Shown in pieces: positions 63,455 through 63,994 of a stretch of DNA of 64,000 bases. The notes below the pieces were generated by a model, which worked only from the letters and a program-made list of their open reading frames with translations, did not search any database and was not told where the DNA came from. The position numbers and the translations under genes were made by a program. This stretch comes from Escherichia coli (lineage in GTDB: Bacteria > Pseudomonadota > Gammaproteobacteria > Enterobacterales > Enterobacteriaceae): assembly GCF_003334385.1 (NCBI RefSeq), contig NZ_QOWN01000015.1; one strand, 5' to 3'. Each line of letters begins with the position of its first letter. Within the stretch, counting starts at the first letter, position 1.

Positions 63455-63994
63455 TCATCTTTCGGTGGCGGGTTCTTCCGTTGTGGGCCAGCCCACAACG
63501 TAACGCTGAATGGCCTCCGCATCCTGAAGTTCTGCAATCTCTTTTTTCATGTTGCGCTGGCGCACATGAATTTCCATTCCCTTCGCGAACATTGCCTGTT
63601 GCGCGGCTTCACTCAGCGCAATCAGTTCTTCCGCAGTCATGGGGACGTCGTTGTTGTCTGCGTCTGTCCAGAAAAACTTCTCCGGGAGATTGCCTTCTTT
63701 TGCTGCGATAACTGATGGGCCAAGGCGATCCTGTGTTTCCTTTCCATAATCCCAGTTACGGCCATTAAAGCTGAAAATATAACTGGCTGATTCCATTCTG
63801 TTCCGCCAGGCGTTGATCCCGGCGGTTTTGAGTTCTCTGGCTTTTTCCGGGCTGATGGATGGCTGTACATGTTCTGCAATTTCACCGGCCTCTCCTTTCT
63901 GACAAGCGGCATAAATATCCCGCCCGTATGCTTCGGTATCGCTGGCTGTTGCAGTGAAAGGAACCGCCTGCTCAATGTGCTCAAACTTCACCAT
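63455..63994 (-). CDS. Phage tail-fibre-assembly/chaperone-like protein (DUF4376-like), 179 aa
   Basis: Complete ORF with ATG at 63994..63992; C-terminal half resembles phage tail fibre chaperone domains. Assignment from recalled similarity only. Confidence 0.4.
   Translation of the reverse strand: MVKFEHIEQAVPFTATASDTEAYGRDIYAACQKGEAGEIAEHVQPSISPEKARELKTAGINAWRNRMESASYIFSFNGRNWDYGKETQDRLGPSVIAAKEGNLPEKFFWTDADNNDVPMTAEELIALSEAAQQAMFAKGMEIHVRQRNMKKEIAELQDAEAIQRYVVGWPTTEEPATER

Follow-up and report, generated by a model that had tools for sequence, protein, structure and literature searches.

The right-hand end of a 64,000-nucleotide (nt) stretch of an Escherichia coli contig (NZ_QOWN01000015.1, assembly GCF_003334385.1; hereafter the window) raises the question of whether a minus-strand open reading frame (ORF) that converges on the phage tail gene gpU encodes a tail-fibre assembly chaperone and, if so, which fibre it would serve. 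By analogy with characterised members of its protein family, we consider it likely that this gene encodes the cognate tail-fibre assembly chaperone of a P2-like prophage. The RefSeq name of its product, "DUF4376 domain-containing protein", could then be read as a gpG-equivalent fibre chaperone in this prophage lineage.

The gene at the window end and its family

In the ORF listing of the window this frame occupies 63455..63994 on the minus strand and comprises 179 amino acids (aa), from an ATG at 63994 to a stop at 63455. The first-pass annotation had described it as complete. Completeness cannot be known from the window, however, because in the raw sequence the frame runs on without a stop from 63994 to the window end. 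When positions 62000-64000 were compared with complete E. coli genomes by megablast, E. coli S1-CAM-02-A (NZ_CP145707.1) gave a 100% match and 13 further genomes matched at 99.7-99.8%. The surrounding 42 kb of NZ_CP145707.1 (locus L001) were used as the extended locus; a window position equals the L001 position plus 41999, and the window end was checked and found to be identical. In L001 the frame is still open upstream, and RefSeq annotates a 200-aa coding sequence (CDS; WP_016232577.1) at 21456-22058, the window equivalent of 63455-64057. The start of this CDS lies 57 nt past the window end and has an AGGAG 6 nt upstream, while no Shine-Dalgarno sequence precedes the internal ATG at 63994.

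The protein comparisons agree with this longer form. Its 21 additional residues (MNVEKISNPQWADKDHTAVNC) form a conserved N-terminus in the alignment of homologues, the PHROG 1141 profile aligns from position 4 with the 200-aa form and only from position 24 with the 179-aa form, and close homologues, at 190-200 aa, span 95-100% of the 200-aa query. The 200-aa start is the true one, and the 179-aa ORF is the window-cut 3' end of a real coding gene. ORF length alone would be no proof of coding, because nearby antisense ORFs reach 237 and 247 aa; coding status is given by the profile matches of the 179-aa form (PHROG 1141, E=4e-72; Pfam DUF4376, E=2e-20). The ORF itself was accordingly called correctly and only its completeness was not, and an ORF that starts so close to a window edge should not be labelled complete. 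The part of the gene within the window is:

63455..64000, minus strand: 3' 546 nt of the DUF4376 chaperone gene (stop and C-terminal 181 codons; codons 1-19 fall beyond the window end)

DUF4376 (PF14301) is the sole Pfam match of the protein at E<=10 (i-E 2.1e-20, residues 52-161 of the 179-aa form), and the 200-aa form matches PHROG 1141 over its full length (2e-78). PHROG families 1141, 11571 and 1807 were matched, all of which are labelled 'tail fiber protein'. Of the 554 homologues found, nearly all are PF14301 proteins, 190-230 aa long and encoded by E. coli or Salmonella, and a few are hybrids in which a Caudo_TAP-type N-domain is fused to DUF4376. In the protein itself Pfam gave no match to Caudo_TAP (PF02413) at E<=10. 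NCBIfam has no family for it, nor for gpU, gpE or the tail sheath. A sequence search of the PDB returned a chance-level match only (E 0.66) and none to the chains of 5YVQ, and PADLOC found no defence-system match for this protein, for the fibre or for the DUF6645 protein described further below.

Profile match, gene position and modular build all place the protein in the DUF4376 family, and it is not a Caudo_TAP protein. The exact protein is already present in RefSeq under its generic name; it is an uncharacterised member of a known family within an equally known phage architecture. The label 'tail-fibre-assembly-like' given in the first-pass annotation is supported as to a probable fibre chaperone role, by analogy, but the family is DUF4376 and not that of the classical gpG/Tfa proteins. 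Assignment of the protein to an unrelated family had been named as an outcome that would speak against such a role; the Pfam search returned DUF4376, a family that is not unrelated to fibres.

In the alignment of homologues a variable N-terminal part (~70 aa) precedes a conserved C-terminal part (~120 aa). An AlphaFold2 model built on a 40-sequence alignment (predicted local distance difference test, pLDDT, 92.7; predicted template modelling score, pTM, 0.65) places three strands and a helix at the N-terminus (residues 3-53), followed by helices at 70-90, 106-120 and 142-175, and also contains two beta-hairpins. Its structural neighbours in BFVD are DUF4376 and 'tail assembly chaperone' proteins. 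The monomer model gave no fold match to the TfaMu structure 5YVQ.

The fibre gene and its pairing with the probable chaperone

Since tail fibre chaperones normally follow their fibre gene, the fibre gene had been predicted to lie just beyond position 64000 on the minus strand. This is where we found it. Specifically, L001 22075-23682 encodes, on the minus strand, a fibre protein of 535 aa whose gene ends 16 nt before the chaperone start, with the AGGAG lying in the gap. The fibre begins with a P2 gpH-type domain (PF12571, 1.9e-51), which is followed by two Phage_fiber_2 repeats, a coiled-coil-like stretch, a collagen Gly-X-Y stalk (residues 384-441) and a tip of ~90 aa ending in GIGLFQRAY. No solved or characterised homologue of this tip was found from which a receptor could be inferred, and the literature on the PhiR5/PhiR12 phages, checked for receptor clues, held nothing relevant. 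A similar fibre architecture occurs in EPclA-D of enterohaemorrhagic E. coli (PMC3368898), which share the Phage_fiber_2 repeats, the coiled-coil, the collagen triple-helix stalk and a small C-terminal trimerisation domain; the C-terminus of EPclA differs, ending in DVKGLD.

The distal half of the fibre and the chaperone resemble those of lambdoid phages. Over its last 152 aa the fibre shares 81% identity with Stf of the lambdoid phage PhiR5_1 (blastn, BLASTP), and the chaperone is 83% identical to the PhiR5_1 'tail fiber assembly' protein; in PhiR5_1 this pair comes after J and lom. The lambdoid Stf/Tfa pairs of PhiR5_1, PhiR5_2 and PhiR12_x and the P-Eib prophage ORF-191 thus share the collagen stalk and tip, the chaperone and the gene order with the present locus. 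They differ from it in the anchor, which is of the lambda Stf type (phage_tail_N) there and of the P2 gpH type here, and in the last ~12 chaperone residues. The fibre/chaperone cassette is present in 27-30 of 5426 complete E. coli genomes, about half of them with a P2-like and half with a lambdoid context. These comparisons indicate that fibre tip and chaperone are exchanged as one predicted host-range unit between P2-like and lambdoid coliphages.

The pairing extends to other members of the family, as in 8/8 other contexts a fibre gene or fibre remnant lies immediately before the DUF4376 gene. We compared nine fibre/DUF4376 pairs from seven loci (this one, L002, L005, L008, L009 and L010 with two pairs each, and L011), relating the identity of the last 80 fibre residues to the identity of either the N-domain or the C-domain of the chaperone. 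Fibre tip and N-domain were correlated (Spearman rho 0.67-0.68, Mantel p = 0.0013), also when two close relatives were left out (rho 0.58, p = 0.008). No correlation was seen across the nine pairs between fibre tip and C-domain (rho 0.09, p = 0.34), whose identity is 46-77% regardless of fibre type. This pattern suggests a fibre-specific N-domain combined with a generic oligomerisation or folding C-domain, for which it would be expected, with the sample being small and the relation a correlation only.

Gin/Cin-type invertase sites that might flip the fibre segment had also been proposed as something to look for, and here the prophage has neither invertase nor crossover sites. No serine DNA invertase is annotated across the prophage, and tblastn with the P88 invertase finds none in L001 or L004. 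Inverted crossover sites with the AAACCNNGGTTT core gave 0 matches in the 42 kb with 1 mismatch allowed, while in the positive control, phage P88, two sites with this core bracket the invertible segment. A second, oppositely oriented fibre C-terminus with its chaperone is likewise missing from the locus, in which only 35 nt separate the chaperone stop from the gpU stop. With no invertase and no crossover sites, the fibre specificity is therefore fixed and not switchable.

A different arrangement was observed in the Salmonella contig AAQAKL010000005.1 (L010 263-1473 and 2388-4579), where a prophage has three DUF4376 genes around a resolvase-type invertase. One of them encodes a Caudo_TAP+DUF4376 hybrid, another has the opposite orientation, and a collagen-type fibre gene precedes the third. 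DUF4376 chaperones therefore do join invertible fibre systems elsewhere.

Proposed role of the DUF4376 protein and the alternatives

Characterised DUF4376 and Tfa chaperones provide the basis for a working model, and it is from them that we infer the activity of the protein, its trimerisation and stoichiometry and its fate after assembly. The chaperone gene would be the last cistron of a minus-strand V-W-J-I-H late operon, in the position of gpG, and would be translated from its own Shine-Dalgarno sequence. The variable N-terminal beta-sheet domain (about residues 1-70) is proposed to dock on the C-terminal tip of the nascent fibre, while the conserved helical DUF4376 domain (about residues 70-190) would trimerise and so set three fibre chains in register. 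The fibre tip, and then the collagen-like triple helix, could zip up from the C-terminus, after which the chaperone may dissociate or stay as a loosely bound cap. The chaperone operon and the convergent FI-FII-E-T-U operon would both end at one shared hairpin.

Several published systems are in line with this model. The DUF4376 protein gp27 of V22 is needed for an active receptor-binding fibre (PMC7289586), and both A5 gp9 and V22 gp27 co-purify with their fibres and have been modelled as trimeric, cap-like complexes (PMC10579305). In Campylobacter, the CJIE1 H-fibre depends on a downstream DUF4376 gene (PMC7882524). The division into a variable fibre-binding N-domain and a conserved helical trimerising C-domain is structurally established for Pam3 gp25 and has been discussed for TfaMu (PMC9608196). 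As in the present protein, the characterised DUF4376 chaperones carry PF14301 in the C-terminal half, are of similar size (195-239 aa) and have a variable N-terminal part. Their genes also directly follow the fibre gene, and the module moves with the fibre between unrelated phage types. The Alteromonas phages differ in having knob-domain fibres, whereas the fibre here is of the P2 gpH type with a collagen-like stalk and a small tip, and the intramolecular chaperone (IMC)-like fold that has been claimed for characterised DUF4376 chaperones was not recovered with the monomer model. Classical Tfa proteins of the Caudo_TAP family (P2 gpG, Mu U/TfaMu, lambda Tfa, P88 gp40/gp41) occupy the same genomic slot after H/S/stf and share the same inferred two-domain logic. 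What sets the chaperone here apart from them is the lack of a match to Caudo_TAP or 5YVQ, and no homologue of the P88 Tfa, or other Tfa/gpG homologue, was found in the prophage by tblastn with P88 Tfa.

A number of observations weigh against a chaperone role. The DUF4376 chaperones with experimental support are very far removed from this protein in both sequence and host (Alteromonas, Campylobacter), none being a close homologue, the covariation rests on nine pairs only, and the PHROG label reads 'tail fiber protein' and not chaperone. Moreover, EPclA, which is likewise a collagen-like prophage fibre of E. coli but has another C-terminal domain, trimerised recombinantly in a study that does not mention a chaperone (PMC3368898), and A5 gp8 can fold in the absence of its chaperone. 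Because of these last two cases, a strict chaperone requirement is not guaranteed. The DUF4376 protein might instead be a permanent distal cap or adhesin of the mature fibre that aids receptor recognition, as is T2 gp38 or as has been proposed for TfaMu. The label carried by PHROG families 1141, 11571 and 1807 would fit this, A5 gp9 remains on its fibre through purification and has been proposed to have a 'cap' role, TfaMu is reported to stay on the Mu fibre (PMC7882524), and the covariation between N-domain and fibre tip is compatible with either a stable or a transient complex. However, V22 gp27 binds its fibre weakly, and the two come apart on size-exclusion chromatography, and the conserved half of the protein, with its 46-77% identity across fibre types, is unlike a receptor-binding surface under diversifying selection. 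We regard a permanent cap as rather unlikely, and the same holds for the protein being a co-adhesin or removable cap that remains on the tip of the mature, collagen-like fibre. If it did remain there, host range would be set by the pair of fibre tip and DUF4376 protein, as one cassette moving between contractile P2-like and non-contractile lambdoid phages.

It is far less probable still that the gene is unrelated cargo, such as a moron or exclusion gene, at the post-fibre junction. This junction does carry unrelated genes in relatives (an invertase in P88; a DUF262 gene and a hypothetical gene in ST16-OXA48phi5.4), and the protein has no NCBIfam name and no solved homologue. Yet the gene is tightly coupled to the fibre gene on the same strand, with a 16-nt gap that holds a Shine-Dalgarno sequence, in both P2-like and lambdoid phages it has been inherited together with the fibre tip and covaries with it, and members of its family are needed for fibre function elsewhere; it is also the only candidate for gpG function in the prophage and has no PADLOC match. 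A defective prophage remnant or R-type tailocin, in which the fibre/chaperone pair would serve a bacteriocin, could be imagined from the window, which holds only tail genes together with D, ogr and hok and no head gene, and the first-pass annotation had spoken of a 'tail, phage or tailocin'. In the source genome, however, the element between serS and dmsA spans ~39 kb and has a full head, replication and integration set: portal, large and small terminase, scaffold, P2-family capsid and head completion genes, lysis genes, a replication endonuclease, repressor/Cox-type regulators and an integrase. This set is syntenic with that of P88 and PhiSM, which are inducible, plaque-forming phages (PMC5285337, PMC6456863). 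Judged by its gene content, the element is a complete P2-like prophage, so that 'phage' can stand and a tailocin or remnant is hardly credible.

If the protein is the cognate fibre chaperone, it must move along with the fibre tip when fibres or tailocins are engineered. The biological value of the assignment is modest, and it opens no long-standing question.

The convergent junction and the rest of the prophage

The tail region of the window contains, besides the chaperone gene, the following features:

63425..63446, no strand: hairpin AACGCCCTG-GTGT-CAGGGCGTT, a putative bidirectional intrinsic terminator between the convergent stops of gpU and chaperone
62955..63419, plus strand: gpU tail protein (PF06995), last gene of the inverted FI-FII-E-E'-T-U operon (RefSeq start 62955; the longest ORF, 157 aa, starts from GTG 62946)
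60112..62943, plus strand: tape measure gpT
59584..60119, plus strand: gpE (59584-59964) with its -1 frameshift extension E' (slippery T_TTT_TTG at 59913-59919; E' continues to TAA 60117-60119)
57827..59532, plus strand: tail sheath FI (57827-59020 in RefSeq; ATG 57815 also possible) and tail tube FII (59020-59532)
57734..57751, no strand: TGT-N12-ACA dyad near the centre of the divergent D/FI intergenic region (57674-57826)
56528..57673, minus strand: gpD (late control D family), on the opposite strand to FI-U and uncoupled from them

The naming of the convergent neighbour as gpU was borne out by a PF06995 match (E=6.6e-40). Between its stop and that of the chaperone lies a 35-nt spacer (63420-63454) with the hairpin, which has a 9-bp stem (6 GC), receives a terminator-like call on both strands and has a free energy (dG) of -16.1 kcal/mol whichever strand is folded (z relative to shuffled sequences, -4.1 and -5.9). 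The T-run that follows it is good on the plus strand (TTTTTGCTGTT, TTTTT) and weaker on the minus strand (ATTATTT). In L002, a related E. coli prophage that is 87% identical, a hairpin of different sequence (AAAACGCCCG-TCAGT-CGGGCGTTTT) occupies the same place and is flanked by A and T runs. That a different hairpin has been kept at this position favours function. The shared bidirectional terminator of the first-pass annotation thus corresponds to a hairpin that has the features of an intrinsic terminator between both stops, and we consider it a putative one, its terminator function being inferred only.

The chaperone-gpU junction is a variable slot in this lineage. In P88 (L003 23833-26915) it contains the invertible fibre segment with the invertase, in the Klebsiella phage ST16-OXA48phi5.4 (L007 6612-8515) a DUF262 protein gene and a hypothetical gene, and here the 35-nt spacer. 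P2 carries the Z/fun cargo between G and FI, a hotspot which this slot resembles.

Upstream of the fibre gene, the same strand carries I, J, W, V, S and R, followed by the lysis genes and X, L, M, N and O. Then come the divergent genes P and Q, replication and regulatory genes and the integrase, which adjoins dmsA. No exact match of at least 12 nt was found between the serS-hok and int-dmsA regions when these were searched for attachment-site repeats. Relative to P2, the FI-FII-E-E'-T-U block is inverted, while D-ogr has the same orientation as V-W-J-I-H. The same convergent layout was found in L002, where both the fibre (993 aa) and the DUF4376 chaperone (248 aa, the N-half resembling Caudo_TAP) are different ones, in a metagenomic/genomic contig encoding P0025, and in the phages P88 (Xuanwuvirus), phiT5282H (Novemvirus) and ST16-OXA48phi5.4 (Reipivirus). 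In P88, PhiSM, phiT5282H and ST16-OXA48phi5.4 alike, V, W, J, I, H and tfa converge on U-T-E'-E-FII-FI; D-ogr is separate and a hok/gef gene stands at the end, as here. Such comparisons mark the convergent layout as the normal architecture of P88-like Peduoviridae, and not as special to this prophage. Since P88 and PhiSM form plaques, the layout is functional; the inverted operon is not discussed in the papers on these two phages. Flanking inverted or direct repeats that would point to a recent inversion of the FI-U cassette were sought, and only chance-level short matches were obtained. The FI-U inversion is ancient and lineage-wide.

P88 and the prophage are fully syntenic, with proteins that are 32-79% identical (sheath 73%, U 79%, D 74%). 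Megablast of the T-U region gave no phage match. The prophage and P88 probably belong to different genera or species, as far as these identities can tell. Of the two, only P88 has the Caudo_TAP chaperone and, between tfa and U, the invertible segment with an alternative fibre end, a second tfa, the invertase and two sites, whereas the distal half of the fibre and the chaperone are of lambdoid type here.

The TGT-N12-ACA dyad in the D/FI intergenic region has the form of the P2 late-promoter motif (Ogr site). In L002, P88, phiT5282H and ST16-OXA48phi5.4 the same place holds a conserved TTGTTGT-N12-A(C/G)A element. Hexamers resembling a -10 element lie ~45-50 nt to either side of the dyad (GATTAT 57787-57792 on the plus strand, GATGAT 57694-57699 on the minus strand). 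Exact dyads of this type number only 6 in the 42-kb locus, another of them being at the O/P divergent promoter. In this lineage gpD and FI-U may be driven divergently from one symmetric Ogr-type site.

Some annotation details and accessory genes were also observed. The E' extension (66 aa in the -1 frame, 59919-60119) is 76% identical to an annotated 'GpE family' protein of L002, and its TAA overlaps the tape-measure ATG (60112). RefSeq annotates only its last 23 codons ('hypothetical protein', L001 18049-18120), and the E+E' frameshift product is therefore mis-annotated. Between the lysis genes and R, the prophage encodes a DUF6645 protein (656 aa; L001 27721-29691) and a DUF1378 protein (27492-27656), which are also present in L002. 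This insert, which has no PADLOC match and no counterpart in P88, is possibly cargo. The ogr-side end of the prophage, beside serS, carries a Hok/Gef toxin gene (55913-56053, minus strand), and P88 has a hok/gef gene at the same end that is 47.8% identical. Rfam gives a 'sok' match at 56043-56200 on the minus strand (48.3 bits, E 1.6e-8, under the gathering score of 59). The hok/sok locus is probably a prophage-stabilising type I toxin-antitoxin system.
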